This document shows positions 8,865 through 62,615 of a stretch of DNA of 64,000 nt, piece after piece. Within the stretch, counting starts at the first letter, position 1, and each line of letters opens with the position of its first letter. A model generated the notes under the pieces. The model was given only the letters and a program-made list of their open reading frames with translations, did not search any database and had not been told where the DNA came from. The translations under genes were made by a program, and so were the position numbers. This stretch comes from an uncultured Nitrospirales bacterium (GTDB taxonomy: Bacteria > Nitrospirota > Nitrospiria > Nitrospirales > NS-4), in the NCBI GenBank assembly GCA_964472655.1, contig CAYYLQ010000013.1, positions 6,845 to 70,844 on the forward strand. The letters run 5' to 3'.

Positions 8865-8884
8865 GAAGCGGTAGCGGGGACTGC

Positions 8885-17119: not shown

Positions 17120-17126
17120 TCGTCGG

Positions 17127-18263: not shown

Positions 18264-18272
18264 CGTGCCGCG

Positions 18273-22322: not shown

Positions 22323-22330
22323 GGCTGGGC

Positions 22331-23566: not shown

Positions 23567-23588
23567 AATAGAAAAGGGGGGACAGCGC

Positions 23589-24773
23589 ATGTTCCAGCTT
23601 GAAGAGAAAGATACAATCGCGGGCGCGAAGATCAAGGTGATCGGCGTGGGCGGCGGCGGCGGGAACGCCGTCAATACGATGATCGCGGCCGGCTTGGAGG
23701 GTGTCGAGTTCATCGCGGTCAACACGGACATGCAGGCCCTGGGCATTTCGCGGGCGCCGACGAAGATCCACATCGGCAAGAACGGACTCGGCGCCGGCGC
23801 GGATCCCGAGGTCGGGCGCGACGCGGCGCTCCAGGACGCCGACAAGATCCGCGACGTGCTCCAGGGGGCCGACATGGTGTTCATCACGGCGGGCATGGGC
23901 GGCGGGACCGGGACCGGCGGTGCGCCAATCATCGCCAGCATCGCCCGTGAGCTCAACGCGCTCACGGTGGCGGTCGTCACCAAGCCCTTTCTGTTCGAAC
24001 TGGGCAAGCGGACGGCGCGGGCGGAAGAGGGCCTGCGGGAACTGCGGAAGCACGTGGACACCGTGATCGTGATTCCGAATCAACGCCTGCTGGGGATCGT
24101 GGATAAGACCACGCCGCTGAAGGAAGCGTTCAAAGTGGCCGACGACGTGCTCCGGCAGGCGATCAAAGGCATCGCCGACGTCATCACGACCCCGGGGCTC
24201 GTCAACGTGGATTTCGCGGACGTGCGCACGGTCATGGGCCACATGGGGCGCGCGGTGATGGGCATGGGCGTGGCGAACGGCGCCAACCGCGTCACCGAGG
24301 CCACGCAGCGGGCGATCTGCAGCCCGCTCCTCGAGGACGGCTCGATCGACGGCGCGCGCGGGGTACTGCTGAACATCACGGGCGGGCCGAGCCTGTCGCT
24401 CCATGAGCTGGACGAGGCCTCCTCGATCATCGCCCAGTCCGTGGACCCGGACGCCAACATCATCTTCGGCGCGGTGATCGACGAGCGGCTGGGCGAGGAA
24501 GTAGTCATCACCGTCATCGCCACAGGGTTCGAGCGCGATCAGTCGGCCGCCAAGCCGGCGCCCCGGCAGGCGTCGCTTCCGACGATCGCGTCCAAGGAAG
24601 CAGACGTGCGCGAGCTGCATCCTAAGCCGAAGCCGATGGACCGCCCGGCCTTCCTGCGGCGCGGCCCCGCGGCGCGCGATCTGGCGGAACGGTCTGACCG
24701 ATCGGACCGGCCGATGCTGGCATCGGAAGATGAATGGGACGTGCCAACGTTCTTGCGCCGGCAAGCTGACTAG
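23589..24773 (+). CDS. ftsZ: cell division protein FtsZ
   Basis: [23 protein letters not shown]-terminal DVPTFLR. Confidence 0.97.
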
Positions 24774-33625: not shown

Positions 33626-34432
33626 TCATGTGGCGGACGACATCCGTAGACGCCCGGCCAGCTTCAGCAAGAGGAAGGCCGTGATCGGCAGGTACATCAG
33701 CAGACCGGCGGCGCCGATCAGCGGCTCGCCGATCCAGAAGGTGACGGCCAGGTTGAACGCGAGGATGCCGTAGTAGAGGGCACATCCGAAGAGCAGCTTG
33801 CGGGCGACGTTCGTAGCGGGAGGGGGCATGTGGCCGTATTCGGGCAACCACCTATCGAGTCGTTGATACAGGCCGAAGGAGATGAGGCCCACCACGGCCC
33901 ATCCTGCATAATTCGCGATCGGCACGCCAAAATGCATGCCCGGTTCCGGGTAGTAGTAGATCTTGCCGAGGAACCAGCGGTCGCCGCGGAGAGCCACCGG
34001 GTCGATGACCGCGTCCAACAGCACGAAAAACAGGACGGTGAAACCCAGCACCGGGATCGAGGTGCGGGTCGCCCGGTCGGCGCGCATCGCCATTCCCAGG
34101 CCGCGGCCTTGCGCCGGCAGCAGCAGGGTCAGGGCCAGGCAGTGGCTGGTGAACAGGAGAAACGAAAACGACAGCGAGTCCATGAACGGGACGTTGCTGA
34201 TGTAGAGTTCCCGGCCGACAGTCGAGCCGTTGTAGAAGTACCAGCCGAACGGAACACCGGTGCGTGTGGAGGAGAACTCGCAGACGAAAGCGGTCGCCCA
34301 GGTCATCAGGAAAAAGATCGCCGTGCGTTGCTTCCCGATGAGGTGGATTGAGGTCGCCAGCGCGATGGCGAGAAAAATGAAGACGTACGGCCGGAGCAGG
34401 AGGGTCTTGCCGAGGAGGCCGAGAAGCTCCAT
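33626..34432 (-). CDS. CruF/DUF422-like isoprenoid-modifying membrane protein
   Basis: E..TRTGVPFGWY.Y, DAVIDPVA, GVPIANYAGW. Confidence 0.75.
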   Translation of the reverse strand: MELLGLLGKTLLLRPYVFIFLAIALATSIHLIGKQRTAIFFLMTWATAFVCEFSSTRTGVPFGWYFYNGSTVGRELYISNVPFMDSLSFSFLLFTSHCLALTLLLPAQGRGLGMAMRADRATRTSIPVLGFTVLFFVLLDAVIDPVALRGDRWFLGKIYYYPEPGMHFGVPIANYAGWAVVGLISFGLYQRLDRWLPEYGHMPPPATNVARKLLFGCALYYGILAFNLAVTFWIGEPLIGAAGLLMYLPITAFLLLKLAGRLRMSSAT

Positions 34433-35418
34433 TAGGCGTAGCGATGGTCGCGGAACCAGCGCACTGCCTTGTCCAGCGCGACCTCCACGGGCGTCTGCGG
34501 CAAGTTCAGTTCGCGGATGGCCTTGGAGCAGTCATAGTGCATGACGTACTTGGCCATCTTGACGCCTTCGAGCGGAATGCGCGGCGGTCGGTGCGTGACG
34601 TAATCGGCCAGCCATTGGTTGGCGTAGGCCAGCGGCAGGATGGCCAGGCGCGGCAGTTTGATCGTCGGGGCGGGGACGCCGGTCAGGCGGCTCAGCAGCG
34701 CGAAGACCTCGCGGAGCGTCAGGTTTCGATTGCCCAGGATGTAGCGTTCGCCGAGCCGGCCCTTCTCCATGGCGTGAAGATGGCCGACGGCGACGTCATC
34801 CACGTCGATCAGGTTCATGCCGGTCTCGATGTAGGCCGGCATCCGGCCCCTCATGAAGTCCACGATCACCTGACCCGTGGGCGTGGGCTTGATGTCGCGG
34901 GCGCCGACCGGCGCGCTGGGATTGACGATCACGACCGGCAGTCCCGCGCCGGCCAGCTTTATCACTTCCTGCTCGGCCAGGAACTTCGACCGCTTGTAGT
35001 GGCCTGACATCTGTTCGAGCGACCGCGGCGTCTCTTCCGTCCCCAGTCCGCCGCCGGGCGGCAGGCCGATCGCGCCGATCGTGCTGGTATAGACGATCCG
35101 CTCGACGCCGACGGCGCGCGCCGCTTCCATGAGGTGGCGCGTGCCGGTGACGTTGATGTCGTAGAAGATCTGCGGATCGGGCGCCCAGAGGGCATAGTGC
35201 GCTGCGACGTGATAGAGCTGCTGGCAGCCGGTGAGGGCCTGCCGCAGGGAGACGGCGTCGCGCAGATCGCCGTAGGCCTGCTCGACCTTGAGCCCTTGCA
35301 GGTTGCCGAGGTCGCTGTCGCGCCGGACGAGCACGCGGACTTCCACTCCGCGTTCCGACAGGCACCGCGCCACGGCGGCGCCGATGAACCCCGTGGACCC
35401 CGTCACCAAGGCTTTCAT
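34432..35418 (-). CDS. hpnA: hopanoid-associated NAD-dependent epimerase
   Basis: GSTGFIG, HVAAHYALW, YKRSK, DIKPTPTG. Confidence 0.85.
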   Translation of the reverse strand: MKALVTGSTGFIGAAVARCLSERGVEVRVLVRRDSDLGNLQGLKVEQAYGDLRDAVSLRQALTGCQQLYHVAAHYALWAPDPQIFYDINVTGTRHLMEAARAVGVERIVYTSTIGAIGLPPGGGLGTEETPRSLEQMSGHYKRSKFLAEQEVIKLAGAGLPVVIVNPSAPVGARDIKPTPTGQVIVDFMRGRMPAYIETGMNLIDVDDVAVGHLHAMEKGRLGERYILGNRNLTLREVFALLSRLTGVPAPTIKLPRLAILPLAYANQWLADYVTHRPPRIPLEGVKMAKYVMHYDCSKAIRELNLPQTPVEVALDKAVRWFRDHRYA

Positions 35419-35463
35419 TACACCCGCCCTCCCCAGGCGCGCGGAGACGCGCCCTTTCCCGCG

Positions 35464-36354
35464 TTAATTTTTTCTGGCGATGATGTAGCGGGCCAGCTCG
35501 CGGAGGGGCTCGGCCTTCCGATCGAAGCCCTTGAGATGCCCGATGGCCAACGCGACGCGTTCCTCGGCCAGCTTGCGGGCGCCGTCCACACCAAAGAAGG
35601 TCGGGTAGGTCTTTTTTCCTCGGGAGGCGTCGGTGTTCGCGTCCTTGCCCAATTCCTCGCGCGTGCCCGTGACGTTCAACACGTCGTCCGCAATTTGGAA
35701 CGCGAGGCCGACGTCCTCTGCATAGGCGGTCAGGCGATCCAATTGTTTCGATGTGGCGCCTCCGGCGATGCCACCGATGCGGACGGACGCGCGGATGAGC
35801 TTGCCGGTCTTCCAGCGATGCACGCCTTCCAGCGTGGTCAGGTCGATGTCCTTGCCTTCGGCCTCGATGTCGGCAACCTGCCCGCCCACCATGCCCACGT
35901 TGCCGGAGCCGGCGGCCAGCTCCTGGATCACCCGTACCTGCGCGCGGGGGGCGAGACCGTCGGCCGACTCGGGACGGCTGACGATGTCGAAGGCCATTGT
36001 CAACAAAGCGTCGCCGGCCAAGATCGCCATGGCTTCGCCGAAGACCTTGTGGTTCGTGAGCTTGCCACGCCGGTAGTCGTCGTTGTCCATGGCGGGGAGG
36101 TCGTCGTGGATCAGCGAATAGGTATGGATCAATTCCAGAGATGAGGCGAGGGGCAGGATGAAGGGCGAATCCCCACCAACGGCTTCGTAGGCCGCGATGG
36201 CCAGGATCGGACGCACGCGCTTCCCCCCGGCGAACAGGCTGTAACGCATGGCCTTGTGGAGCTTCGCCGGCGGCGCGGATTCGGGCGGCAGGACGGCCTC
36301 GAGAAAGCAGTCCACGGCCTGCCGTTTTTGCTCGAGATACTTCTTAATGTCCAT
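35464..36354 (-). CDS. ispA: polyprenyl (farnesyl) diphosphate synthase
   Basis: GGKRVRP, HDDLPAMDNDDYRRG, FQIADD, KKTYP. Confidence 0.92.
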   Translation of the reverse strand: MDIKKYLEQKRQAVDCFLEAVLPPESAPPAKLHKAMRYSLFAGGKRVRPILAIAAYEAVGGDSPFILPLASSLELIHTYSLIHDDLPAMDNDDYRRGKLTNHKVFGEAMAILAGDALLTMAFDIVSRPESADGLAPRAQVRVIQELAAGSGNVGMVGGQVADIEAEGKDIDLTTLEGVHRWKTGKLIRASVRIGGIAGGATSKQLDRLTAYAEDVGLAFQIADDVLNVTGTREELGKDANTDASRGKKTYPTFFGVDGARKLAEERVALAIGHLKGFDRKAEPLRELARYIIARKN

Positions 36355-36406
36355 ACAGGAAGGGAGCTTAACAAGCCTTCCAAAGAGAGTCAACGCACGG
36401 TGAAAG

Positions 36407-37009
36407 TCACGGAATGGCCGCGAAGTCGAGGTCGAAGGAGAGTTCCCCGCCGCCGCGCGGGAAGACGGAGAGTTGGGTCTTCGCCAGTGGATCAAAGTCG
36501 CCGTAGACGAAGGATGCCACAACCTTGGCGCGATAGGCCGGCGACTTCGGCCAGGCGGACGTGCGGTCGGCCGTGGCGTCCGCCCGAACGTGCGTCGGCA
36601 TAATCTTCCGGTCGCCCTGCGTCAGCATGACGAAGGTGTTCTGCGCGAACTCGCGGCGGTCTCCGTAGAGCGTGACGCTGATCTGAAGGTGCTTGTCGTC
36701 CAGAACCCGCTGGAGTTCCTGGTCCGTCGGCTGCGCGGAGCGGAGCGCGAAGTGGGCCGACATGACGGCCAGCCCCGAGAGCTTCGTCATGAGGAAGCCG
36801 CGTGGGTGGAACTCGTTCGCGGGGTCGCTAGGCGGGCCGAACCACGAGTAGAGCTCGACCGGGGGAACCCGGGACGTCGCCGCGGCGCGGCCCCGTTCCA
36901 GCGCCTGCCGGACCTGTTCGGCGCTCGGCTGCACTTCAATGGCTGCCGCGATGGTCGCGATGCAGCCGACCGCCGGAACGATGAGACCGAACACATAGCG
37001 TTTGTTCAT
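36407..37009 (-). CDS. hypothetical exported protein
   Basis: signal peptide MNKRYVFGLIV...AAA; globular. Confidence 0.7.
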   Translation of the reverse strand: MNKRYVFGLIVPAVGCIATIAAAIEVQPSAEQVRQALERGRAAATSRVPPVELYSWFGPPSDPANEFHPRGFLMTKLSGLAVMSAHFALRSAQPTDQELQRVLDDKHLQISVTLYGDRREFAQNTFVMLTQGDRKIMPTHVRADATADRTSAWPKSPAYRAKVVASFVYGDFDPLAKTQLSVFPRGGGELSFDLDFAAIP

Positions 37010-37087
37010 CGGGAGGTTTCTAGTCCGGTTGAACGTCCCAGTCAAGGCTTGCGGGAAGCGCCGGGCTTCTCTATACTGTGCCTCGCT

Positions 37088-37471
37088 ATGGGATGGCGCC
37101 GCATCGAACAGGGCATCGAAACCCAAACATTGGAGATCCAGCCGGCCACCTGCCCAGTGTGCCGGAAGGGCCTTTACCGGAACGTCACCTTCCTGACGGG
37201 CGGGTGGGCCCGGTGCTCCCAGTGCAACGAGGTCGTCCATTACGCCTGCCTCAGCGGGGGGAAGTTTCTAAAGGAACGGCCCCGGCTGTGCGCGGACTGC
37301 AAGGCTGGCCGTGTGCGGCCCTCCCAGAAGATGCCGGTGCCGCCGCCCAGGCCGCCGACCGCGGCGCCTGAACCCGTTGCGGTCACGGCTCCGGCGCCGC
37401 CGGTCCCTCCCGCAAGTTCTCCGCCTGTTCCCGCGACGCCTGTACCGCCTTCTTCCACTCCAGCTGCATGA
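37088..37471 (+). CDS. C4HC3 (PHD/RINGv-like) zinc-finger protein with Pro-rich tail
   Basis: CPVC-x17-CSQC-x4-HYAC-x13-CADC; TTGCGG-N17-TATACT upstream. Confidence 0.72.
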   Translation: MGWRRIEQGIETQTLEIQPATCPVCRKGLYRNVTFLTGGWARCSQCNEVVHYACLSGGKFLKERPRLCADCKAGRVRPSQKMPVPPPRPPTAAPEPVAVTAPAPPVPPASSPPVPATPVPPSSTPAA

Positions 37472-37812
37472 ACGAGCCGGTCGCGGCGCAGGGGTCGCCG
37501 GGAGCGCGATGGTGGAATGGCGCGTTCCTCGTCCTCGTGGTGCCGATCGTCAACGTCATTGGCGGGTTCTTCATCCTCGATTTTCTCCTGAGCGGCCAAT
37601 ACACCTGGGGCAGGACGCTGCGGATACTCGTCCTCTCGCTGAGCCTTCTCGTGCTGGTGTACGAGTTCGTGTATCGGGACCTGCAGATGCGCCATCCCGA
37701 ATGGCCGGGGCGGCGCCTGCTGAACCGCGTGCTGGGCTATGCGGTAATCCCGTTTTTCAGCGGGATGGTGATGCTTCTTCTGCTACTCGCGGCGACGCGG
37801 CTGATGAAATGA
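37468..37812 (+). CDS. hypothetical 3-TM membrane protein
   Basis: three hydrophobic helices; ATGA overlap with upstream gene. Confidence 0.7.
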   Translation: MNEPVAAQGSPGARWWNGAFLVLVVPIVNVIGGFFILDFLLSGQYTWGRTLRILVLSLSLLVLVYEFVYRDLQMRHPEWPGRRLLNRVLGYAVIPFFSGMVMLLLLLAATRLMK

Positions 37813-37819
37813 AGGGGAA

Positions 37820-38041
37820 CTACTTTGCGGCGTACTTAGATGTGTGCTGGAACACGCACTTCGGGCAGATGTAATGCAGGAATTTCCCGTCGGCCACCAG
37901 CCGCTTGGTCATCGGGACCTTGCACCAGGTGCAGGCCCGGTCGGGCGTGTCACAAAGCGAGCAAACGGGGGTGACGGTGCCGTCCCGACTCACCGGCACG
38001 GTCGGCTTTCCGCACTTGGAGCAGGCTGAATTCTCATTCAC
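37820..38041 (-). CDS. double zinc-ribbon small protein (4x CxxC)
   Basis: CSKC, CSLC, CTWC, CPKC; probable GTG start at 38041. Confidence 0.65.
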   Translation of the reverse strand: MNENSACSKCGKPTVPVSRDGTVTPVCSLCDTPDRACTWCKVPMTKRLVADGKFLHYICPKCVFQHTSKYAAK

Positions 38042-38077
38042 GCCTGTCTTTTCGCACAGCCAAAAGAGGCTTGTCAA

Positions 38078-38416
38078 ATGAGCTCCAGGGCAGTCCGTGC
38101 ATTCTTCGAGGCGCTGCCGTCCCACTTCCATCCCGATGCGGCGGAAGGGGTGCGCGCCGTCTATCAATTCGATCTGGCGGGCGAGGAAGGCGGGCAGTAC
38201 CAACTCCACGTCGCCGACCGGTCCTGCCGGGTCTGCGACGGCGTCCATGCTTCACCAAACGTCACGTTGTCGATGGCGGGGGAGGACTGCATCGCGATTC
38301 TGGAGGGGAAACTGAACGGCCTGTCGGCGTTGCTCAGCGGGCGTTTGAAAATCGACGGCGATACGGGACTCGCGATGCGGCTGGCGGCCTTCTTTCCCGA
38401 TCTGCGCCCGAAATAG
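38078..38416 (+). CDS. SCP2 sterol/lipid-binding domain protein
   Basis: AVYQFDLAGEEGG, LSGRLKIDGD..LAMRL. Confidence 0.85.
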   Translation: MSSRAVRAFFEALPSHFHPDAAEGVRAVYQFDLAGEEGGQYQLHVADRSCRVCDGVHASPNVTLSMAGEDCIAILEGKLNGLSALLSGRLKIDGDTGLAMRLAAFFPDLRPK

Positions 38417-38420
38417 ATCC

Positions 38421-40094
38421 TTACTTCTTCAGGTCCGCCCAGGCCTGCTGGTAGTCCTCGAAGGTATCCACCTCCATCCATCCTTTGTAGATGGTGAGGC
38501 ACGAGACTTCGTGCCCGCGCGCGACCAGTTCCTGGAGCATGTCGGTCAGCGACGCTTTCTGGAGCGAGGGCGCTTCGTGGAAGGGGGCGGCGGATTGCGG
38601 GGCGAGAGCGTGATATGCGGACTTCAGCAGATCGGTCCCCTGTTCGGAGAACATGGCCAGACCGATGAACTCGCCGTGCGCCCGTTCCTGGTCCAGGTGC
38701 TGACCGATCTTCACCAGTCGGCTGGGGCCGTCCGGAGGCACGAACCGGTAGCCCGCCGCCGGCGGCACATCCATCACGACGAGATCAGGCTTGACATGCG
38801 GGCGCGGCAGCGTGCGCTGGTCCACCCAGGCCTGATCCACCACGATCGTGATGTCGGCGGGGCTTTTCAGCAGCTTGTGCAGGATGCCGGTCTCGAAGAT
38901 GATGTCGGAATACAAGAGAAGGCAGCGCCCCGTCAATTCGGGCTCGGCGCAGAAGATGGACGTGAGTTCGCCGGTTTCTTCGTACCGGTCGTTATCGTAA
39001 TAACGCAGGTTGGGGAGCGCGATCTTGTCTTTCTGGTACCCACGAACGACGGCGATGTTCTTGATGTTGACGTCGTTGAGGGCAGCCACCTGGCGCTCCA
39101 GGATCGTTTTTCCTTTAATGTCCAGCAGGCATTTGGGCTTGTCCTGCGTGAGCGGCAGGAGCTGCTTTTCGAATCCGGCGGCCGGGATGATGGCCGTGAT
39201 CTTCTCGGTGCCCGCCGGGAGGAACCGGCGCTCGTCTTCCTCCATCTGGGTCACGCCGACCAGATCGTAAACCTCCTGAAGCGCGACCATCCGGTCCGAG
39301 ACGGCCTCGGCCCGGCTCTCTTTTTTCAGGACATCCAGGGTGTCACGCATGGCCTTGATGGCGGTGCGGATGACTTGATTGGCGAAGATGACGATTTTGA
39401 AGCCGTGCCGCTCCAGTTCCTCCGCCGTAACCGCGCCGAAAATGGTCGGGACCACGACCAGCGGGACGCGGCCGGACCACCGCGCGGCGACGGCGCGCAG
39501 TTCGTCGAATGTCGGCGACTTCGAATGAATCAGCACCGCGTCGGCGCCAGCGTCGGCGTAGGCCTCGGCCCGTTTCAGGGCTTCCTCCTGGCCCCAGCCG
39601 GCGATGAGCGCCTCGGTGCGGGCGATGACGAGAAAGTCGGGGGAGGCTTGTGCGGACTTGGCGGCGCGGACCTTGCCGGCGTGCTCGTCGGCGGAGACCA
39701 GTTCGCGGCGGACGCCGGCGTAAAAGGAGCACCGTTTGGGGAACACGTTGTCCTCGATGCAGATGCCGGCGATGCCCGCCTTCTCGTAGTCCTGGACGGT
39801 CCGCATCACGTTCAAGGCGTTGCCGAAGCCGGTGTCGCAGTCGGCGATGACGGGAATCGCCGCCGCCTCGACGATATTCTTGGTGACTTCCAATTGCTCG
39901 GTCATGGTGAGGAAGCTGCCGTCGGGGATGCATTTGAGCGAAGCCGAGATGCCGAACCCGGAAGCCCAGATCGCGTCGAACCCGGTGCGCTCGATCATTT
40001 TGGCGCTGAGCGCATCGTGGGCCCCGACCGTCCGGATGATGCCCGGCCGGTTCATCAATTCGCGGAGCTTGGCGGCGTGCCGTATGGATTTCAT
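38421..40094 (-). CDS. pepM: PEP mutase-like (ICL/PepM family) enzyme fused to a C-terminal nucleotidyltransferase domain
   Basis: IWASG, DCDTGFG, ARTEALIAG, LIHSK, VVVPT are PepM-like; loop is the variant EDNVFPKRCS; C-domain has LTQDKPKCLL, YSDIIF, WMEVDT. Confidence 0.75.
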   Translation of the reverse strand: MKSIRHAAKLRELMNRPGIIRTVGAHDALSAKMIERTGFDAIWASGFGISASLKCIPDGSFLTMTEQLEVTKNIVEAAAIPVIADCDTGFGNALNVMRTVQDYEKAGIAGICIEDNVFPKRCSFYAGVRRELVSADEHAGKVRAAKSAQASPDFLVIARTEALIAGWGQEEALKRAEAYADAGADAVLIHSKSPTFDELRAVAARWSGRVPLVVVPTIFGAVTAEELERHGFKIVIFANQVIRTAIKAMRDTLDVLKKESRAEAVSDRMVALQEVYDLVGVTQMEEDERRFLPAGTEKITAIIPAAGFEKQLLPLTQDKPKCLLDIKGKTILERQVAALNDVNIKNIAVVRGYQKDKIALPNLRYYDNDRYEETGELTSIFCAEPELTGRCLLLYSDIIFETGILHKLLKSPADITIVVDQAWVDQRTLPRPHVKPDLVVMDVPPAAGYRFVPPDGPSRLVKIGQHLDQERAHGEFIGLAMFSEQGTDLLKSAYHALAPQSAAPFHEAPSLQKASLTDMLQELVARGHEVSCLTIYKGWMEVDTFEDYQQAWADLKK

Positions 40095-40193: not shown

Positions 40194-40928
40194 ATGGCTG
40201 CGAGAATCGCATTGATCACGGGCGGGGCGAAGGGGATCGGCCGCGCGATCGGGTTGGACCTCGCCGCGGCCGGCTGGGACGTCGCCTTGTGCTACCGGAC
40301 ATCCGAGCGCGAGGCCGCCGAGACGGCGTCGCTTATCCGGAAGACGGGCCGGCGCACGCTAGCCGAGCGGTGCGACGTCTCCGATCCGGCGGCCGCCGAC
40401 GCCTTTTCGCGAAAGGTCGAGAAGGAGTTCGGCGCGGTGGATGCCCTCATCAACTGCGCCGGCCCGTACCATCGGATCAACATCCTGGAAGAGACGCCGG
40501 CCGGGTGGAACGAGATGTTCGCCCATAACCTGCACGCGGTCTTCTACATGAGCAAGGCGCTGGCTCCGACGATGAAGGCCAGGAAGTGGGGCCGGATCGT
40601 CAACTTCTCCATGGCCAATGCCGACCAGATGGTGGCGCAGACCGAGGTGACGGCCCATTACATCGCCAAGGCCGGCGTCCTGATTCTGACCCGCACGCTG
40701 GCCAAGGCGCTGGCGCCGCATGGCATCACGGTGAATGCCATCTCGCCGGGCTTCATCAATTCGGGGAGCGCGCCGGAAGCGGAACTGGCGGCTATGGCAA
40801 AGAAGATTCCGGCGGGCTATATCGGTGAACTGAAAGATGCCGTGACAGCAGTCCGGTTCCTGCTCTCTGACGATGCCCGTTATGTCACGGGCACCAACAT
40901 CCATCTGAGCGGCGGCTGGGGAATCTAG
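40194..40928 (+). CDS. SDR family oxidoreductase
   Basis: TGGAKGIG, NCAG, VNAISPG; HYIAK at the YxxxK position. Confidence 0.88.
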   Translation: MAARIALITGGAKGIGRAIGLDLAAAGWDVALCYRTSEREAAETASLIRKTGRRTLAERCDVSDPAAADAFSRKVEKEFGAVDALINCAGPYHRINILEETPAGWNEMFAHNLHAVFYMSKALAPTMKARKWGRIVNFSMANADQMVAQTEVTAHYIAKAGVLILTRTLAKALAPHGITVNAISPGFINSGSAPEAELAAMAKKIPAGYIGELKDAVTAVRFLLSDDARYVTGTNIHLSGGWGI

Positions 40929-54960: not shown

Positions 54961-55665
54961 TTAGCGGTTCGTGGGGGGAACATTGAAGCGCCAGTCCTTG
55001 AATTCTTCGATGACGGGGTCCAGGTTGAACGCCACGCTGATGCGCGGGGTTTCTCCTCGGTAGATACTGACGGAGTGCGACAGCCATCCGGGAAACATCA
55101 CGCACCTCCCGTTCTCCGGCGTGAAGGAAATGGTCTTGCCTGCGTCGTGCAGCTCGGACACGGCGTACCGGAGAAACGGCGCCAGCATCGTCGGCAGGCA
55201 TCCGCGCGGATCGTAGAGCTGCAGATCCCCGCCCGTATCGCTTCCGGCGGTGATGTCGCCCACGTCCACATAGTACACGCCGGACCAGAACGTGCCGGGA
55301 TGCGGATGCGTGGAATTGCTGCCGCCTTTGCGCTGGACGTTCGCCCAGGTCTCGACGACCTGCCAGCCCGGATGCTTGCCGGCCAGATCGGGCGCGCGCT
55401 CGGAGAATTCCGTGGCCTGCGTGGCAACTTCGATGACGGGAGCCAGCAGGTCCTTCATCGCGGGGCCGGCCCAGTCGAACATGGACATGTCGTGGGGGGA
55501 CGACCAGCCGACGACCTCGTGGTCCGCCTCCGCCGGGGTGGATGCCTCCCGCTCAAGAATCGCGCGGCGGAGATCCTTATTGATGCGCTCGTGGTCCGGG
55601 ATGGCAAAGACCAGCAGGGGCGTGGCGAAAACCGGCCGGACGTTGATTTCCATTTCTCGGGACAT
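54961..55665 (-). CDS. TIGR02466-like 2OG-Fe(II) oxygenase
   Basis: WANV, HPH..WSGVYYV, FPGWLSHSV, RISVAFN. Confidence 0.85.
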   Translation of the reverse strand: MSREMEINVRPVFATPLLVFAIPDHERINKDLRRAILEREASTPAEADHEVVGWSSPHDMSMFDWAGPAMKDLLAPVIEVATQATEFSERAPDLAGKHPGWQVVETWANVQRKGGSNSTHPHPGTFWSGVYYVDVGDITAGSDTGGDLQLYDPRGCLPTMLAPFLRYAVSELHDAGKTISFTPENGRCVMFPGWLSHSVSIYRGETPRISVAFNLDPVIEEFKDWRFNVPPTNR

Positions 55666-55793
55666 GCTTGGACGCCTCTGCAACCAGTAACGTTGTCCGC
55701 AGAATATCGTCAGTGCCGGATTGTGTCAAGCTGGTTCCGGACGCGAAGTTCGCCTTGTGAAATCCCCATACGGTTGGCTATAATCCGTTGCCC

Positions 55794-56282
55794 ATGCCGT
55801 TTCCTGCCAAAGACTTCGTCAGCCTGCTCCAGGAAGCGGGTTTCGACTTCTTCACGGGGGTTCCCGATTCGACGCTGGCGGGGATCATCGCCGTGCTGAT
55901 CGAGCGACGGGTGTACACCCCCGCGGTGCGGGAAGACGAGGCGGTCGGCATGGCGGTGGGCGCGTATATGGGCGGTAAGGTGCCGGCGGTGCTGATGCAG
56001 AACTCCGGACTGGGAACGTCATTGAACGCGCTGATCTCGCTGAACCTGATCTATCTCCAGCCGTGCCTGCTGCTGATCTCCTGGCGCGGGCACGACGGCA
56101 AAGACGCGCCGGAGCATCTCGTCATGGGGCAGGTCCTGGCCAAACAGCTCGACCTTGTGCGCATCCCGCATCGCACGGTGAAGGCCGAGACCGTCCGCGA
56201 AGACCTCGGCTGGGCCGCGCAGGTCTTCATGGCCCAGCGCATCCCGGTCGCGCTGCTGGTCACCAAGGGAATCTTTTCGTGA
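55794..56282 (+). CDS. phosphono/sulfopyruvate decarboxylase alpha subunit (ComD-like)
   Basis: FFTGVPDS, REDEAVG, MQNSGLG, ISWRG..DAPEH. Confidence 0.85.
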   Translation: MPFPAKDFVSLLQEAGFDFFTGVPDSTLAGIIAVLIERRVYTPAVREDEAVGMAVGAYMGGKVPAVLMQNSGLGTSLNALISLNLIYLQPCLLLISWRGHDGKDAPEHLVMGQVLAKQLDLVRIPHRTVKAETVREDLGWAAQVFMAQRIPVALLVTKGIFS

Positions 56283-56872
56283 GGCCGGAAGAGGGCGTGC
56301 TCACGAGCCGCGGCCGCGCCATCGGCGCCGTACTGGGGTTACTGACCGACGAGCTGGTGGTCGCCTGCAACGGCTTTCCGTCGCGCGAGGCCTACACGCA
56401 GCGCGACCGACCGGAGAATTTTTACATGATCGGCTCGATGGGCTTGGCGCCGGCGATCGGGCTGGGGGTCTCCCTGGCGCAGCCCCGGCGGAAGGTGGTA
56501 GTGCTTGACGGCGACGGCAATGTGCTGATGGCCCTGGGCACGCTGGCGACGGTGGGCGCGCTCCAGCCGAAGAATTTGGTGCACATCGTGTTCGATAATG
56601 AAGTGTACGGCAGCACCGGCAATCAGCCGACGATCTCGCGAACCGTTCGTCTGGAGCAGGTGGCAAAGGCCGCCGGCTACAAGAACGTGGAACGGGTGCG
56701 GGAGTTGGATGACGCGGTGTATGAAGCGAAGGCCATGCTGAAGAAAGACGGTCCGAGCTTGCTGCTCGTGAAGGTGTCGGAGTTGGCGGACGACGTGGGG
56801 CGGGTCGAGATCGAACCGGCGGCCATGACCGAACGATTCCGGAAGGCCGCCATGCGAGGAACGACGGCATGA
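56279..56872 (+). CDS. phosphono/sulfopyruvate decarboxylase beta subunit (ComE-like, TPP-binding)
   Basis: FYMIGSMG, DGDGN, DN..YGSTG.Q; GTGA overlap. Confidence 0.85.
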   Translation: MRPEEGVLTSRGRAIGAVLGLLTDELVVACNGFPSREAYTQRDRPENFYMIGSMGLAPAIGLGVSLAQPRRKVVVLDGDGNVLMALGTLATVGALQPKNLVHIVFDNEVYGSTGNQPTISRTVRLEQVAKAAGYKNVERVRELDDAVYEAKAMLKKDGPSLLLVKVSELADDVGRVEIEPAAMTERFRKAAMRGTTA

Positions 56873-58176
56873 TCCTGCTGAACCCCGGTCCTGTGAACGT
56901 CTCCGAGCGCGTGCGGCAGGCCTTGCTGAAACCGGACATCTGCCATCGCGAGTCCGAATTCACCGATCTGATCGAAGGCATCCAGGACAAGCTCGTCCGT
57001 GCATTCGCTCCCTCGGGCGAGTATCTGCCCATCCTGATCACCGGTTCCGGCACGGCCGCGGTAGAGGCAGCCGTGACGTCCTGCCTGCCGCCCGGACGCC
57101 GCATCCTTGTCATCAAGAACGGCGTGTACTCGCAGCGGATCGCCTCGATCGCCGCCGCGCACAAGATGCAGAACATGGATATTCCCAGTGAGTGGGACCA
57201 GCGCTTCGACACCGAAACGGTGCCGGTTGCGCTCCGGCAGAATAAAGCCATCGAGGTGGTAGCCGTCGTTCACCACGAGACCGCCACCGGCCTGCTCAAC
57301 CCGGTCAAGGAGATCGGGGCGATCGTCAAGAAAGCCGGCCGCACTCTCCTGGTGGACGGCGTCAGCAGCCTCGCCGGCGAGGAGCTCGATTTCGTGTCCT
57401 CCAACGTCGGCTTGATCGCCGGTTCGTCGGGCAAGTGCATCCAGGGCTTTCCCGGCGTCGGTTTCGTCATGGTCCGCCGCGACATCATGGAACAGATGGT
57501 GACCTACGAGCAGCGCTCCGTCTATTTCCATCTGCCCACCTACTACAAACATCTCGAAGAGGGCTCCATTCCGTTCACGCCCGCGGTGCAACTCTACTAC
57601 GCGTTCGACGAAGCGCTGAACGAGCTCCTCGATGAGGGGGTCGCGACCCGCATCGCGCGCTACCGCAAGATGGCGCGCCTGATCAGGAACCGCATGCGGG
57701 CCATCCGGATGAAGTTCTTCCTGCGCGAACCGTTGTGGTCAAGCACCCTCACGGCCTTCAACCTGCCGGAGGGCGTGTACTACGATCATCTGCATGACCT
57801 GCTGCGCGAGCGTGGGTACGTGATTTACGCCGGCCAGGCGCAGCTGGCGAACACGCTGTTCCGCGTGGCCAACATGGGAGCGCTCACCGAGGCCAACATC
57901 ACGGGCTTTCTGGATGCCTTCGAGGAGGTCTTGCCGAAAGCGCGTAAGCTGGGCGAGGAACGGATGGGCGAGATGGACCGTCTGGGCGCCGAGCGGGTAG
58001 AGAAGGCGGAGCGCGAGGCGGCCGAGGCGAAGGCGGCCGAAGAAGCGGCGAAAGCTGCGGAAGAGGCCAGGAAGGCCGAGGAAGCCGCCAAGAAAGCCGA
58101 AGCGGACGAGAAAAAGAAAAGCGATGCGGAGGACGCGACGACCGAAGACAAACCCGAAGTGAAGTCGGGCGCGTGA
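56869..58176 (+). CDS. class V aminotransferase (2-aminoethylphosphonate transaminase-like) with Ala/Glu/Lys tail
   Basis: LLNPGP, GSGTAAVE, VHHETATG, DGVSS, SSGKCIQG, PFTP. Confidence 0.82.
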   Translation: MILLNPGPVNVSERVRQALLKPDICHRESEFTDLIEGIQDKLVRAFAPSGEYLPILITGSGTAAVEAAVTSCLPPGRRILVIKNGVYSQRIASIAAAHKMQNMDIPSEWDQRFDTETVPVALRQNKAIEVVAVVHHETATGLLNPVKEIGAIVKKAGRTLLVDGVSSLAGEELDFVSSNVGLIAGSSGKCIQGFPGVGFVMVRRDIMEQMVTYEQRSVYFHLPTYYKHLEEGSIPFTPAVQLYYAFDEALNELLDEGVATRIARYRKMARLIRNRMRAIRMKFFLREPLWSSTLTAFNLPEGVYYDHLHDLLRERGYVIYAGQAQLANTLFRVANMGALTEANITGFLDAFEEVLPKARKLGEERMGEMDRLGAERVEKAEREAAEAKAAEEAAKAAEEARKAEEAAKKAEADEKKKSDAEDATTEDKPEVKSGA

Positions 58177-58179
58177 TCC

Positions 58180-58932
58180 ATGAAGGCCGTGATCCTGGCA
58201 GCGGGTGTCGGCAAGCGTCTCGGAGCCGTAACGGGGAACCGGCCCAAGTGCCTTCTCGAAATCGGGGGGCGGTCTCTTCTCGTTCGGTATCTCGACGCGC
58301 TGCTGGAAGTCGGCATCAAGTCGGCCGTACTGGTGGTGGGCCACCAGCAGGAGCTGATCCGGAAGGCGGTCGGTGATGCGTACCGGGGGCTCGCCCTTCG
58401 CTACATCGTCAACGATCAGTACCAGCGGGGCAGCCTCTATTCGCTGTGGCTCGCCCGTGCGGCCTTCGACGACGATCTCCTGATCATGGACGCGGACGTT
58501 CTGTGCCCGGCGTCGTTCGTGGCGCGGTTGGTCAACTCGCCGCACCCGAATGCGATCCTGATTGACGAGAGGGTGCGCCAGGATTCGGAGGAGCGGATGG
58601 CGGTCATCCGGGGGGGGCGGGTGGTTGCGCTCACGAAGCGGCCGCCGCCACAGCCGCCCGATCTGCTCGGCGAAGGCGTGGGGTTTCTCAAAATCACCGG
58701 GCGCGACAGCGAGGCAATGGTAGCGGCGATGGAGCCGTTCGTGGCGAAGGGCGCTCTCGACATGGAATACGAGGATACCTGGGAGGCCTTCTTCCGCGCC
58801 GTCCCGGTCGGATATGAGAAGATCGGCGGGCAGCCGTGGATCGAGATAGATTTTCCGGAGGACATCGCGCGCGCCGAGCGCGAGATTCTGCCGAAGTTAA
58901 CACAGGAAAGGGAGCAGAGGGCGAGCCTATGA
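58180..58932 (+). CDS. LicC/PntC-like phosphocholine/phosphonate cytidylyltransferase
   Basis: LAAGVGKRL, PKCLL, MDADV, EGVGF, WIEIDFPED. Confidence 0.82.
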   Translation: MKAVILAAGVGKRLGAVTGNRPKCLLEIGGRSLLVRYLDALLEVGIKSAVLVVGHQQELIRKAVGDAYRGLALRYIVNDQYQRGSLYSLWLARAAFDDDLLIMDADVLCPASFVARLVNSPHPNAILIDERVRQDSEERMAVIRGGRVVALTKRPPPQPPDLLGEGVGFLKITGRDSEAMVAAMEPFVAKGALDMEYEDTWEAFFRAVPVGYEKIGGQPWIEIDFPEDIARAEREILPKLTQEREQRASL

Positions 58933-59912
58933 GCATCCGCATGGATCAGATTCAGCCGATCATCGACCGCGAGTACGAGTACCTGATGTCCGAGCACCCG
59001 TGTTGGAGCCTGACGAAGGGCGATCAGGACCTGGAGTTGGTGGCTCACGCGCTCCGCGTGCTGCTCCACATGAAGACCACTCCGCAGCATCTCGCCGAGT
59101 ATCTCGCGCTGGTCGAGTGCCAGCACGCCGACGGGGGATGGGGCAAGATGTCTTCCGATAAGACGAGCGCGGCCTGGGTGACGGCCTTCTGCGCCCTGAT
59201 GCTGATTCGCGGGAATCTCCACTTGAAGAATCCTCGGATCGCCGAGGCGGTGAAGAAGTGCGTCCGCTATTTCCTGGACACCCAGAAGGAGGACGGGAAA
59301 TGGTCCGACCCCTCCTGGGCGGATTTGGACGCCGTCAGCCATCCGATCAGCTTCTTCGACGTCCTCCTGGCCGTCGGCCCGAACCTTCTGGATGCGCCGA
59401 CCCTGGCCAAGGTCAAGGAATCCTGGCGCAAGGGCATGAAGTTCATGCTCGACCGGCAGGCCGCCGACGGCGGCTGGTACGATCCGGAATTCCATCCCAC
59501 CGGCGTGGAGATCACTGCCCACTTGATCCAGGATTCCATTGTGGCCGACCTGGTCCTGACCGACGAGCTCAACGTGCGGAACTGCTGTCGGAAAGGCGTG
59601 ACGAAGCTGCTCTCGGTGCAGGCGGCCGACGGCTCCTGGGACGGCGAGAACGTGGACCACACCATGGACTGCACCAGATCCATCATGCTGGTCTGCAGCA
59701 TCCTGGGGACCAGGGCGCAGTGCGATCGGGCGATCGAGCGCGGGCTCGAGTGGATCCTGAAACACAAATGCGAGAAGGGCTGGCCTGACTTCCCGGGGAT
59801 GGAGACGAACCTCGAGCGGACCTGCGACGGGCTCGACACCCTGCTCAAGTACAAGTCCTACAGCCAGCCGGTCGCGACGGCGATCGTGAAGCTCTGGGGG
59901 TATGCCGCGTGA
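58929..59912 (+). CDS. prenyltransferase/squalene-cyclase QW-repeat alpha/alpha-barrel protein
   Basis: QHADGGW, QKEDGKW, QAADGGW, QAADGSW repeats; about 327 aa; no DxDD. Confidence 0.8.
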   Translation: MSIRMDQIQPIIDREYEYLMSEHPCWSLTKGDQDLELVAHALRVLLHMKTTPQHLAEYLALVECQHADGGWGKMSSDKTSAAWVTAFCALMLIRGNLHLKNPRIAEAVKKCVRYFLDTQKEDGKWSDPSWADLDAVSHPISFFDVLLAVGPNLLDAPTLAKVKESWRKGMKFMLDRQAADGGWYDPEFHPTGVEITAHLIQDSIVADLVLTDELNVRNCCRKGVTKLLSVQAADGSWDGENVDHTMDCTRSIMLVCSILGTRAQCDRAIERGLEWILKHKCEKGWPDFPGMETNLERTCDGLDTLLKYKSYSQPVATAIVKLWGYAA

Positions 59913-60220
59913 CCTTTCTGGCGAAGGTCGCCGAGATCCCGGACGGCGAGCGCAAGCTCATCCAGGTGGGCGGCGTCAGCGTCGCGGTCTTCCATCAGGA
60001 CGGGCGGTTTTACGCCCTGAACAACGCCTGCCCTCACCGCCAGGGGCCGCTGATCCGTGGAGCCCTGGAAAATTGGGGAGAAGGGGCGGTGTGCGCGATC
60101 CGCTGTCCCATGCACGGCTGGAAGTTCGATCTGGCGACGGGCGACAGCCACGGCCGTCCGGAGAATGCGACCGTGTATTCTCTCACGCAGAAGGGCGACG
60201 AACTCTACATCGAGATCTAG
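59909..60220 (+). CDS. Rieske [2Fe-2S] ferredoxin
   Basis: CPH...CPMH, WKFDLATG. Confidence 0.9.
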   Translation: MTFLAKVAEIPDGERKLIQVGGVSVAVFHQDGRFYALNNACPHRQGPLIRGALENWGEGAVCAIRCPMHGWKFDLATGDSHGRPENATVYSLTQKGDELYIEI

Positions 60221-61603
60221 ATGGACGGCTCTCCCATTGACAGCGCCCTGATCCTGGCCGCGACGCGGATTTTTCACCGGCCGGGCGAGCCGTTGCCGGC
60301 TGGTTCCCTGACGGTGGTGGGCGGGCTCTCCCTGTTTCAACGCACGGTGCTGACCCTGCAGCGCGGCGGGATCACGCGGGTCATTGTGCTGGCCGGGCGG
60401 GAGACCGAGGACTTGAAGCGGCAACTCCGGGGAGACAGCCGAGTCACAGCCGAGATCCGGTGGGTGCCGGTCCGGGAGTTCCCCGCCGACGACCCGCGAA
60501 CGTGGGAGGTTCTCACTGGCATATTCGGCAGGCCGTATCTGGTGGCGGGGACGGGCGCCGTTTTTCCGGCGAGCCTTGTCGCACGTCTGCGTGAAGAGGG
60601 CGGAAAAGATGAGCCGGTCGTCGTTGCGCGGAGGATGGCGGAGCACCAAGGGTTGCAGAATAAGGCAGAGGTGGTTCTCGAACTGCCCCTGCAGGGTGGT
60701 GGGGGCATGTTGCAGGCGGCCGCCGGAGTCGTCACGGTAGAGGAGGCGGCAGCGTTGGCGCTCGACGTGGACCTCGTAGCGCTTCCGACGACTTTTACGT
60801 CGCCTGGGTGGGCCGGCGCGCAGGGCGGGGAGCATCCCCTGCAGACCGCGATCGAGCGGGGGATCCGGCAAGGACAGGTCCGAATCCTGCCGTTGGGCGA
60901 GGACTGGTATCAGGACGTGTGCGCCGAAGGCGCCGCGACTCCCGAACAAGCCGAATGGGTCTTGCTGCGTTCGCTGAAGGGCGGCCTTGAAGGGTTCGTG
61001 GACCGGCATTTCAACCGGAAGTGCTCCAAGTGGATCACCCGCGCTCTGCTGCAAACGCCGCTCACGCCCAACGGCGTGACCGTGCTGGCCACGCTGGTCG
61101 GATTGCTCTCCGGAGCGGTTTTCGCGTGGGGCGGGTACGCCGCCGGCGTTGTGGGAGCGCTGCTTTTCCAGCTCTCGGCCGTCCTGGATTGCTGCGATGG
61201 GGAAGTCGCCCGCCTGAAGTTCATGGAATCGCCCTTCGGCGAGCAACTGGACGTGGCCCTCGACAACGTCGTGCACGTCGGCCTCTATGCCGGGATGGGA
61301 TGGGCCGCGTACCAATCGGGATGGGGGATCTCCGCGTTGACTCTGGGTGGGCTGGCGATCGTCGGCAACGTGGCGGCGTTCGCGGTCGTTCAGCGGGCGT
61401 TCCGGATGCGGGACGACCTGGCGGCCCCGCGCCGACGGCGCGTGGAGGCCATCCTGAACCGTCTCGTAAGCCGCGACTTTTCGGTCCTCATCCTGGCGCT
61501 GGCCCTCCTCGGGCATGTCGAGTGGTTCCTCGCGCTCGCCGCCGTCGGCTCCAACATCTTCTGGCCCACGCTGGCCTGGCAGCTCCGATCATCAACAACG
61601 TGA
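60221..61603 (+). CDS. degenerate NTP-transferase domain + CDP-alcohol phosphotransferase
   Basis: DCCDGEVAR....GEQLDVALD signature, TPN.VT; N-terminal VGGLSLFQR. Confidence 0.85.
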   Translation: MDGSPIDSALILAATRIFHRPGEPLPAGSLTVVGGLSLFQRTVLTLQRGGITRVIVLAGRETEDLKRQLRGDSRVTAEIRWVPVREFPADDPRTWEVLTGIFGRPYLVAGTGAVFPASLVARLREEGGKDEPVVVARRMAEHQGLQNKAEVVLELPLQGGGGMLQAAAGVVTVEEAAALALDVDLVALPTTFTSPGWAGAQGGEHPLQTAIERGIRQGQVRILPLGEDWYQDVCAEGAATPEQAEWVLLRSLKGGLEGFVDRHFNRKCSKWITRALLQTPLTPNGVTVLATLVGLLSGAVFAWGGYAAGVVGALLFQLSAVLDCCDGEVARLKFMESPFGEQLDVALDNVVHVGLYAGMGWAAYQSGWGISALTLGGLAIVGNVAAFAVVQRAFRMRDDLAAPRRRRVEAILNRLVSRDFSVLILALALLGHVEWFLALAAVGSNIFWPTLAWQLRSSTT

Positions 61604-61604
61604 C

Positions 61605-62615
61605 ATGACGCGGCTCACGCTCGTCCTTCTCCTGCTGGGCGTGGCGGTGCTATGCGGCCTTGTGCTCCACATCGGGCCGGCCACGCTGGTTGAGGAAGTC
61701 CGCAAGCTGGGCGTCAACGTCTGCTGGATTCTGCTGCCGTCGGTCGTCGTGTATGCGCTGGACGCGCTCGGTTGGCGCTACACGCTGGGCCACCATGCGG
61801 ACAAGATCCGGTTTGACCGGCTGTTCATGACCCGCATGGCCGGCGAAGCCGTGAACTACACGACGCCGGGACTGTATCTTGGCGGCGAGCCGATGAAGGC
61901 CTATCTGCTGAGCCGCCATCAGGTCCCGCTCGTGGACGGCATGGCCTCGGTCGTCACGGCCAAGACGACGATGACCTTCGCAGAAGTCACCTTCATCATG
62001 ATCGGGATCGGGCTGAGCGCGGTGCTCCTCGTCCATTCCGGCGACCTGCTGATGACGAGCCTGGTCGGGCTCGGTCTGCTGGGATTCGGCATGGGCCTGT
62101 TCGTGGCGGTCCAGCGATTCGGGCTCTTCGTCAGCCTTCTCCGGGTGCTGGAGCGCCTGGGCGTGAAGATCGCCTGGCTCCAGGCGCGTGAACACAGGCT
62201 GCGGGCCCTGGACGACGCGATCCGCGGCTTCTATGTCCGCGACCGGCGCGGGTTCCTGTTTTCGTTCCTGGCTTTTTTCGCAGGATGGCTGGTGGGCGCG
62301 GTGGAAGTGTACCTGATCCTCTATTTCCTGGGTCTGCCGGTGGACTGGCCGACGGCGATCGCGCTCGAGGCGCTGGCCGTGTTTGCGAAGGGCGGGACGG
62401 CGTTCATCCCCGGGAGCGTCGGCGGGCAGGAAGCGGGCACCGTCCTGCTGTTCGTGGCCTTCGGCTATACGGAAGCGGCCGGCGTGACGTTTGCAATCGT
62501 GCGTCGCATCCGGGAGATCGTCTGGATCGCGTTCGGCCTGTGGGCGCTGGGCATGCAGAACCGCAGTCTCTCGTCACCCGAGCCCTGCGACCGTCCCCCG
62601 CTCGCGCGCCCGTGA
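61605..62615 (+). CDS. lysylphosphatidylglycerol-synthase TM/flippase-like protein (HpnL/AglD2-like)
   Basis: GEAVNYTTP...GGEPMK, IPGSVGGQE, VRRIRE. Confidence 0.8.
   Translation: MTRLTLVLLLLGVAVLCGLVLHIGPATLVEEVRKLGVNVCWILLPSVVVYALDALGWRYTLGHHADKIRFDRLFMTRMAGEAVNYTTPGLYLGGEPMKAYLLSRHQVPLVDGMASVVTAKTTMTFAEVTFIMIGIGLSAVLLVHSGDLLMTSLVGLGLLGFGMGLFVAVQRFGLFVSLLRVLERLGVKIAWLQAREHRLRALDDAIRGFYVRDRRGFLFSFLAFFAGWLVGAVEVYLILYFLGLPVDWPTAIALEALAVFAKGGTAFIPGSVGGQEAGTVLLFVAFGYTEAAGVTFAIVRRIREIVWIAFGLWALGMQNRSLSSPEPCDRPPLARP

Follow-up and report, generated by a model that had tools for sequence, protein, structure and literature searches.

The closest described relatives of the protein examined here are the Ppm-PntC fusions, in which a phosphoenolpyruvate (PEP) mutase, called Ppm or PepM, is joined to a PntC nucleotidyltransferase. 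As described in PMC6697681, these fusions carry the loop motif EDKX5NS and have Ppd (phosphonopyruvate decarboxylase), AEPT (2-aminoethylphosphonate aminotransferase) and a second PntC as partners. PEP mutase is the marker gene for estimates of phosphonate producers and for natural-product mining, and it enters models of part of the phosphorus and methane cycles in the environment. Of 27,716 PF13714 sequences, Rice et al. 2019 retained the 1,485 with the motif EDKXXXXXNS, and 22 of the 26,231 that they removed were fused (PMC6697681); the portions of Li and Horsman 2022 (PMC8942020) and of a 2025 actinomycete survey (PMC12723261) that we consulted describe the same filter. Our subject is P0002, a gene at 38421..40094 (minus strand) of a 64,000-nucleotide stretch of DNA from an uncultured Nitrospirales bacterium; the whole stretch is called the window below. 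P0002 is an open reading frame (ORF) with an ATG start that encodes a 557-aa PEP-mutase-like/nucleotidyltransferase fusion (PF13714 and PF12804). It shares domain order, length and partner genes with the Ppm-PntC fusions, but reads EDNVFPKRCS where they have EDKX5NS. An earlier reading of the DNA, the original prediction, had claimed that such a protein would escape the standard motif filter, and the filter applied in all three surveys bears this out: judged by its sequence, P0002 would belong to the set discarded by Rice et al. 2019.

We predict, with a probability of roughly 0.8, that the N-terminal domain of P0002 is a true PEP mutase that converts PEP to phosphonopyruvate. The activity is deduced from context: a real mutase is indicated because the genomes checked that have the variant loop hold Ppd, AEPT and PntC, yet have no other PepM candidate. 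The mutase-like domain (aa 10-293; 39216..40067, minus strand) matches Pfam PEP_mutase (PF13714) over aa 10-253 with 199.5 bits. Its best NCBIfam match is the PEP mutase model TIGR02320 (aa 10-281, 274.7 bits, cut-off 319.55), followed by phosphonopyruvate hydrolase (PPH; TIGR02321, 250.7 bits, cut-off 374.4), PrpB (TIGR02317, 213.9 bits, cut-off 354.4) and CPEP mutase (163.5 bits, cut-off 420.05). Among solved structures, the best relative is 5unc, deposited as phosphoenolpyruvate phosphomutase (E 2.2e-85), ahead of PPH 2dua (5.8e-67), the Mytilus edulis PepM 1m1b (3.4e-62) and the lyases (about 1e-37). Given this similarity to solved PepMs, we consider the fold settled. The PepM-like segments named in the original prediction (IWASG, DCDTG, ARTEA, LIHSK and VVVPT) are all in the translation, and so is the fused nucleotidyltransferase. 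The latter is a MobA/LicC-like domain of PntC type (about aa 299-557; 38424..39200, minus strand), with matches to NTP_transf_3 (PF12804, aa 319-421, 39.2 bits), to PF00483 and, as a family-level similarity, to LicC 1jyk (E 6.3e-9, aa 298-411). Over its entire length, the protein can be aligned with canonical-motif fusions of 540-560 aa.

The gating-loop segment EDNVFPKRCSF (E114-F124; 39723..39755, minus strand) was aligned with the loops of PepM, PPH and PrpB. In HMMER alignments it faces 'iedkrfpkvnsf' of 5unc and 'ledklfpktnsl' of 1m1b. Residue numbers are those of the Mytilus enzyme, which P0002 equals from residue 56 on and trails by one before that, with a gap at residue 55. Relative to the Mytilus enzyme, K116 is replaced by Asn, N122 by Cys and L124 by Phe. 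The Asn-to-Cys change had been named explicitly beforehand and is confirmed, but the Lys of EDK has also changed. Eight ligands and active-site residues (D58, D85, D87, E114, K120, S123, R159 and H190, aligned to 1m1b) are shared with the crystallised PEP mutases. According to the review PMC7916636, D58, D85, D87 and E114 form the Mg2+ site, while the phosphoryl group is contacted by R159, H190 and, hypothetically, N122 and S123. The same review reports that most authors credit N122T in PPH for the difference between mutase and hydrolase, although it doubts that this is the real cause. The changed residue is therefore mechanistically sensitive, as far as the account in PMC7916636 goes. The PPH of Variovorax (2dua) shares the fold and metal ligands of P0002, but its loop, EDKTFPKDTS, has Thr at 122, and the genes around P0002 are biosynthetic rather than catabolic.

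The loop variant is neither a chance change nor private to P0002, since EDNV[FY]PKRCSFY occurs in 121 of 121 sequences, namely P0002 and the 120 best of 3145 word-index homologues (69-96% identical; Nitrospirota/Nitrospira where named). An exhaustive search of representatives gave 15,676 matches at E<=0.001. We aligned the best 150 of these with P0002, six close homologues and E. coli PrpB. Among the 126 rows that cover at least 240 domain positions, residues 116 and 122 are K..N in 80, N..C in 20 (7 of which are the added P0002 and close-homologue rows) and N..N in 12, with other pairs rarer. Further non-canonical loops among the PepM-like representatives are EDN..NS (12 rows), EDN..HS (2), EDN..SS (1), EDH..NS (1) and EDQ..NS (2); bearers of such loops include P0130, P0134, P0186, P0202, P0207, P0218, P0227, P0240, P0257 and P0269. 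A strict EDKX5NS filter would discard these forms as well.

When 28 N..C rows were compared with 27 K..N rows, the positions that best separate them all lay in or at the gating loop. Position 116 is N in 28/28 against K in 27/27; position 122 is C in 28/28 against N; position 125 is Y in 28/28 and never Y in the K..N rows, where the canonical residue is I, L or V; and position 130 is R in 26/28 against Q in 22/27. Position 47 (Mytilus L48) is F in 27 of the 28 N..C rows and L in 23 of the 27 K..N rows. Near-invariant residues, defined as the same residue in at least 27/28 N..C and at least 26/27 K..N rows, include W43, S45, D58, D85, E114, D115, P119, K120, S123, R159 and H190, among others. 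D87 is the one PepM ligand of P0002 below this threshold; the other seven pass it in both loop types. Because the differences concentrate in the loop while the active-site residues stay near-invariant, the aligned sequences identify N116/C122/Y125/R130 as a single, coordinated loop variant in an active site that is otherwise of PepM type. It replaces the canonical K116/N122/[I,L,V]125/Q130, and the rest of the known active site is the same. The variant is a new loop form within the PepM family, not a new kind of enzyme.

The own genome of P0002 (2.17 Mb in 54 contigs, 99% complete) yields four matches to PF13714: P0002, the two halves of one split gene and one 26-bit match below the cut-off. 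None of these four matches is a canonical PepM. The split gene is a second family member that reads EDQVWPKRCGH and is of the lyase type. Its halves lie at two contig ends, L006:2-523 (-) on C50 and L007:1-522 (+) on C35, with overlapping sequence, so that these contigs probably join there. The earlier statement that KRCGH marks lyase-type members agrees with this gene and with E. coli PrpB, which reads EDQVGAKRCGH (L009). A search of the genome for Ppd led to two adjacent ORFs inside the window. Five further genomes with the variant gave the same picture, with EDKX5NS in 0 of their 20 PF13714 matches; the variant is thus the sole PepM candidate in all six genomes checked.

To look at gene context more widely, we searched contigs from one genome per species with a degenerate DNA pattern for EDNx[FY]PKxCS[FL]Y. 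It occurred in at least 119 stretches, and 80 loci from more than 10 phyla were fetched with their flanks. By construction the pattern catches only Cys forms of one loop shape, and the loci are related to one another. With proteins of the window as queries, all ORFs of the 80 loci were searched by phmmer (E<=1e-8). A PepM-like ORF was present in 79 of 80; the remaining locus, L036, was taken as a chance pattern match. Among these 79 variant loci, the nucleotidyltransferase fusion occurs in 63, a Ppd-like gene in 59 (within 2 kb in 55 and within 500 bp in 37), AEPT in 38, a separate nucleotidyltransferase in 45, a CDP-alcohol transferase in 38, an HpnL-like protein in 26 and a squalene-cyclase-repeat protein in 9. 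These counts are lower bounds because contig ends cut many loci. A Ppd gene lies within 2 kb in 15/22 loci of Nitrospirota, 6/10 of Planctomycetota, 6/9 of Acidobacteriota, 5/5 of Rokuibacteriota and 8/8 of Myxococcota, the last including Sorangium cellulosum So ce56 and Minicystis rosea. Actinomycetota also reach 8/8; there, PepM is unfused, the gene order is PepM-PpdA-PpdB, and AEPT is present in 7.

Loci that lack an adjacent Ppd gene were followed up in five genomes by genome-wide search. On a Nitrospirales chromosome with the variant, a split Ppd lies 247 kb away; on a Binatia chromosome, Ppd is 1.15 Mb distant; and in a metagenome-assembled genome (MAG) of Nitrospinota it is on a different contig (317 bits). 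A squalene-cyclase-repeat homologue of about 330-360 aa stands directly beside the variant PepM in 7/7 Binatota loci (L027, L046, L047, L066, L072, L076 and L084), even with Ppd 1.15 Mb off. In the other two, which are MAGs of Armatimonadota (L045) and Tepidisphaeraceae (L088), the genome searches found no Ppd. In both, the variant gene is followed by genes for a class I/II aminotransferase, an ATP-grasp ligase, an MFS transporter and a gamma-glutamyltranspeptidase (GGT) (L045:3782-10552 and L088:3034-9699). The two variants belong to a separate subclade, in which the Cys form is unfused and has the loop EDN[TI]FPKRCSL. Phosphonoalanine peptides are made with a phosphonopyruvate transaminase and ATP-grasp ligases, according to the part of PMC11867202 that we consulted, and we consider these genes a candidate phosphonoalanine-peptide cluster outside the actinomycetes. 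Together with the Ppd/AEPT loci, they indicate that two different known phosphonopyruvate sinks are wired to the variant. The neighbourhood analysis of variant-loop homologues proposed in the original prediction thus finds that most loci have Ppd/AEPT, while another subclade has a design of the phosphonoalanine type.

One apparent archaeal case was set aside. A MAG labelled Candidatus Nitrosocosmicus (G004; L130, L135, L140 and L146) has three ICL/PEPM loop strings identical to those of a Rokubacteria genome (G005; L139, L144 and L148). The contig with the variant PepM in this MAG is probably mis-binned bacterial DNA and, because the two genomes share these loop strings, we do not rely on an archaeal occurrence of the variant.

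The relationship of the Cys forms to mutases and lyases was examined with two trees, which agree. A quick tree had 125 rows and was rooted on E. coli PrpB. A careful IQ-TREE analysis used 86 rows, the single-matrix model LG+G4, ultrafast bootstrap and SH-aLRT, with a bootstrap short of full convergence (correlation 0.988). The latter omitted 56 K..N rows, chosen at random from the 80, together with the long- or odd-branch rows P0131, P0194 and P0219 and the rows with gapped loops; it gained seven lyase-type paralogues and 12 rows from the loci. Ten EDQ..C lyase rows form an outgroup clade (100/99) and the 76 PepM-like rows the ingroup (100/99). The 27 canonical K..N rows are all contained in a 32-row clade (95/95), which is nested in a clade of 35 (99/89) and this, in turn, in a clade of 53 (99/94). 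The N..C rows never form one clade in 200 bootstrap trees, and 6-8 changes are needed to account for them. A 55-row clade (94/88) excludes the N..C clade of Nitrospirota (8 rows, 100/99). A PPH-like row (P0231, EDK..TS) nests among the canonical rows, and one member of the canonical clade, P0250, carries EDKKYPKRCSL, an N-to-C change inside that clade.

On these lyase-rooted trees, then, the Cys forms are placed as a basal grade, and the canonical EDKX5NS clade is nested within it. Since Cys is found in both the outgroup and the basal grade, the parsimonious reading would be that Cys122 is ancestral and Asn122 derived, as suggested by one gene tree under a simple model. We give even odds to a broader proposal, in which N116/C122/Y125/R130 is the ancestral C-P-bond loop: the mutase would have arisen from a Cys-bearing lyase, used that Cys and only later fixed Lys and Asn, leaving a basal grade of active mutases hidden from every motif-based census. 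If so, the grade includes nitrite-oxidising Nitrospirota, Rokuibacteriota, Binatota, Planctomycetota, Acidobacteriota, Myxococcota and Actinomycetota. Within the superfamily, the variant could also plausibly be an evolutionary intermediate that links lyases and mutases, and it offers a natural test of the contribution of Asn122 to dissociative phosphoryl transfer.

Several observations weigh against a mutase. P0002 misses the TIGR02320 cut-off as well as the EDKX5NS motif. The Asn122 site is held to touch the phosphoryl group and Thr there marks PPH, so that a change could alter the reaction, as the account in PMC7916636 suggests. The K-R-C of the loop sits in register with the lyase catalytic triad. 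No Ppd-like gene was seen on the fetched sequence of 20 of the 79 variant loci, many of which end at contig edges, and in Binatota only 1 of 7 loci has Ppd within 2 kb. The decarboxylase subunits in the window fit the models for Ppd and for sulfopyruvate decarboxylase about equally well, under both cut-offs. P0002 itself stands alone, 16 kb from its presumed partners. Finally, no assayed enzyme of the variant clade was found in the literature searched.

A rival reading is that the domain is not a mutase at all, and that the retained lyase-type Lys-Arg-Cys loop does other chemistry on a related substrate, for example as a C-C lyase or aldolase, a hydrolase or a decarboxylase acting on phosphonopyruvate or acids like oxaloacetate. 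In the alignment, Cys122 faces the catalytic Cys of PrpB, following Lys-Arg at the same loop position, and N116 resembles the Gln of the lyases, which likewise places an amide after Glu-Asp. The variant clade branches beside the lyases, the equivalog cut-off for PepM is not reached, and Asn-to-Thr at residue 122 alone accompanies the switch to a hydrolase in PPH, according to the account in PMC7916636. We nevertheless consider this explanation quite improbable. P0002 has Ser-Phe in place of the Gly-His of KRCGH and keeps S123, R159 and H190 of PepM. The variant lies outside the clade of PrpB and the other lyases with support of 100/99, and apart from the PPH-like row; the placement within PrpB/PPH that, by the original prediction, would have told against it was therefore not observed. 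The TIGR02317 and TIGR02321 scores are well short of their cut-offs (213.9 vs 354.4 and 250.7 vs 374.4), and the PntC fusion architecture is identical to that of canonical Ppm-PntC. A non-mutase would also leave the genomes checked with Ppd, AEPT and PntC and no source of phosphonopyruvate. The proposal of an overlooked mutase clade is supported in that the variant is a large, conserved group in many phyla, set within standard phosphonate pathways and outside the lyase clade.

Canonical and variant forms can be compared directly within Nitrospirota. A TIGR02320 search over 201 genomes of the phylum gave 35 matches above the cut-off (383-396 bits), 34 in the order of the window's genome and one elsewhere. 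In this order, 41 genomes including the own genome (G000) comprise 34 with a canonical fused PepM, six with the variant, one with neither (G070) and none with both. The six variant genomes (G000, G057, G097, G109, G188 and G203) score 267-277 bits, and both types occur in one genus code (g2). Loop motifs were checked in 10 fetched loci. Six canonical loci (L149-L154; G137, G194, G093, G164, G014 and G064) read CIEDKLFPKTNSF and have no set of split Ppd, AEPT, nucleotidyltransferase, CDP-alcohol transferase and HpnL genes nearby, although one has a fused Ppd-like gene adjoining. By contrast, four variant loci read EDNVYPKRCSFY, and the complete set is divergent from the variant gene and about 1.3 kb away. 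Because the set lies beside the variant loci and is absent near the canonical ones, the variant travels with its own pathway module. The arrangement in these four relatives also shows that the 16-kb gap in the window is a local rearrangement.

Within one genus, some genomes bear the variant and others the canonical form, and the two differ in gene context. This could also mean that the enzyme is a mutase to which the alternative loop gives a distinct property, such as thiol or redox control of loop closure, another mechanism of phosphoryl transfer or a modified, carboxy-PEP-like substrate. The block-wise covariation of positions 116, 122, 125 and 130 and the presence of Cys in all 121 close homologues fit this idea. 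The ordinary Ppd and AEPT downstream, however, imply ordinary phosphonopyruvate; the scan of the variant loci revealed no redox partner fixed beside the gene across phyla; and the lone N-to-C change of P0250 in the canonical clade suggests simple tolerance. We consider a distinct property unlikely and prefer an ordinary PEP mutase. The suggestion of a different C-P chemistry, also made in the original prediction, is not taken up here, as nothing was found that calls for it.

The presumed partners of P0002 form a run of genes at the far end of the window. A gene for a 2-oxoglutarate (2OG)-Fe(II) oxygenase (54964..55683, minus strand; PF13759, 83.1 bits) is divergent from those for the two decarboxylase subunits. 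The alpha subunit, of the thiamine-pyrophosphate-dependent phosphonopyruvate/sulfopyruvate type (55788..56282, plus strand), scores 126.4 bits with TIGR03297 and 109.5 with TIGR03845, both under cut-off. The beta subunit (56297..56872, plus strand, GTG start) scores 185.6 bits with TIGR03846 and 179.2 with TIGR03297. Since these scores are nearly equal and below the cut-offs, the assignment as Ppd rests on context. AEPT follows (56869..58176, plus strand; TIGR03301 PhnW-AepZ, 348.3 bits, cut-off 360.8), and then a second, free-standing PntC-like nucleotidyltransferase (58180..58932, plus strand; PF12804, 61.7 bits). A catabolic role of the transaminase was considered and rejected: its gene comes after the decarboxylase genes, and no phosphonatase reached the cut-off in the genome search. 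The remaining genes, all on the plus strand, encode an alpha/alpha-toroid (squalene-cyclase-repeat) protein (58836..59912; weak matches to PF13243 and PF00432), a small Rieske [2Fe-2S] protein (59909..60217; PF00355, 67.8 bits), a CDP-alcohol phosphatidyltransferase-family membrane protein (60221..61603; PF01066 at aa 282-406; NF041135, 96.8 bits) and an LPG_synthase_TM/HpnL-like, flippase-like membrane protein (61515..62615; PF03706, 121.6 bits; TIGR03476, 161.2 bits, under cut-off). The CDP-alcohol transferase-family protein has 460 aa, and its N-terminal part of about 240 residues is without a family match.

The similar scores of the decarboxylase subunits for sulfopyruvate decarboxylase, and the lack of linkage between P0002 and the decarboxylase genes in its own genome, would fit a further explanation, in which the PepM-like domain is dead, only the nucleotidyltransferase works, and the decarboxylase and transaminase act on sulfopyruvate or another 2-oxo acid. 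We regard this as extremely improbable. The metal and substrate ligands and the entire loop are strictly conserved over many phyla, and the transaminase is of AEP type by its 348.3-bit match. Moreover, in all eight Actinomycetota loci the unfused variants, directly upstream of PpdA-PpdB and accompanied by AEPT in 7 of them, have no nucleotidyltransferase domain to preserve.

Taking P0002 as an active mutase, we propose the following pathway. P0002 would be a bifunctional Ppm-PntC enzyme in which Cys122, perhaps with the fixed R121, R130 and Y125, substitutes for Asn122 at the migrating phosphoryl group. The split Ppd (PpdAB) would pull the unfavourable mutase equilibrium and so render the reaction irreversible. 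AEPT is predicted to yield 2-aminoethylphosphonate (AEP), which the 2OG-Fe(II) oxygenase may hydroxylate. One or both PntCs, including the C-terminal cytidylyltransferase domain of P0002, could then form the CMP (cytidine monophosphate) conjugate of the finished phosphonate; the CDP-alcohol-type enzyme would move the head group onto a lipid, and the LPG_synthase_TM-like protein would translocate the product. The predicted product is a membrane lipid with an AEP, or possibly 1-hydroxy-AEP, head group. We hold this lipid product less surely than the mutase activity.

This gene set follows the design of the phosphonolipid family called 'Burkholderiales_CDP-OH' or Group 1 in PMC8942020. As given there, its seven-gene core consists of Ppm-PntC, Ppd, AEPT, a 2OG-Fe(II) oxygenase, a second PntC and two phospholipid-type genes, and all seven types are present in the window, the last two as the CDP-alcohol transferase and the LPG_synthase_TM-like protein. 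In the window the core is not contiguous, with ppm 16 kb off, whereas it is contiguous in the relatives L155-L158. The window further differs by the variant Ppm loop, the split Ppd and the extra squalene-cyclase-repeat and Rieske genes. The family was gathered with the EDKX5NS filter and its product is described as uncharacterised, in the part of PMC8942020 that we consulted.

We found no description of a Cys-variant PepM or of a Nitrospira phosphonate pathway in the full-text literature, in which subscription journals are incompletely covered. The matches to 'Nitrospira' together with 'pepM' that we checked refer to PepMap chromatography columns. If the Cys-variant grade is active, the inventories of 2019, 2022 and 2025 miss many lineages from soil, groundwater and sediment; these include certain nitrite oxidisers as well as myxobacteria that can be cultivated, for example Sorangium cellulosum So ce56.

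We now note features of the window close to P0002 and beyond. The neighbours of P0002 are an SCP2 gene (38078-38416), convergent with it, and an SDR gene (40194-40928), divergent from it. ORFs at 36.4-38.2 kb had no family match, and the operon context at the gene itself is uninformative. Besides the SCP2 lipid-binding protein, the region 33629-38416 encodes HpnA (TIGR03466, 460 bits, above cut-off), a CruF-like membrane protein of the carotenoid family and a polyprenyl synthase. This suggests that the phosphonate head-group genes are linked to hopanoid/isoprenoid lipid genes. The squalene-hopene cyclase of the genome is on another contig (C2, 760 bits). Farther away, 7657-24770 is an ordinary dcw cluster with MraW, a PBP transpeptidase, Mur ligases, an MraY-type GT4, FtsW, MurG, FtsQ, FtsA and FtsZ.

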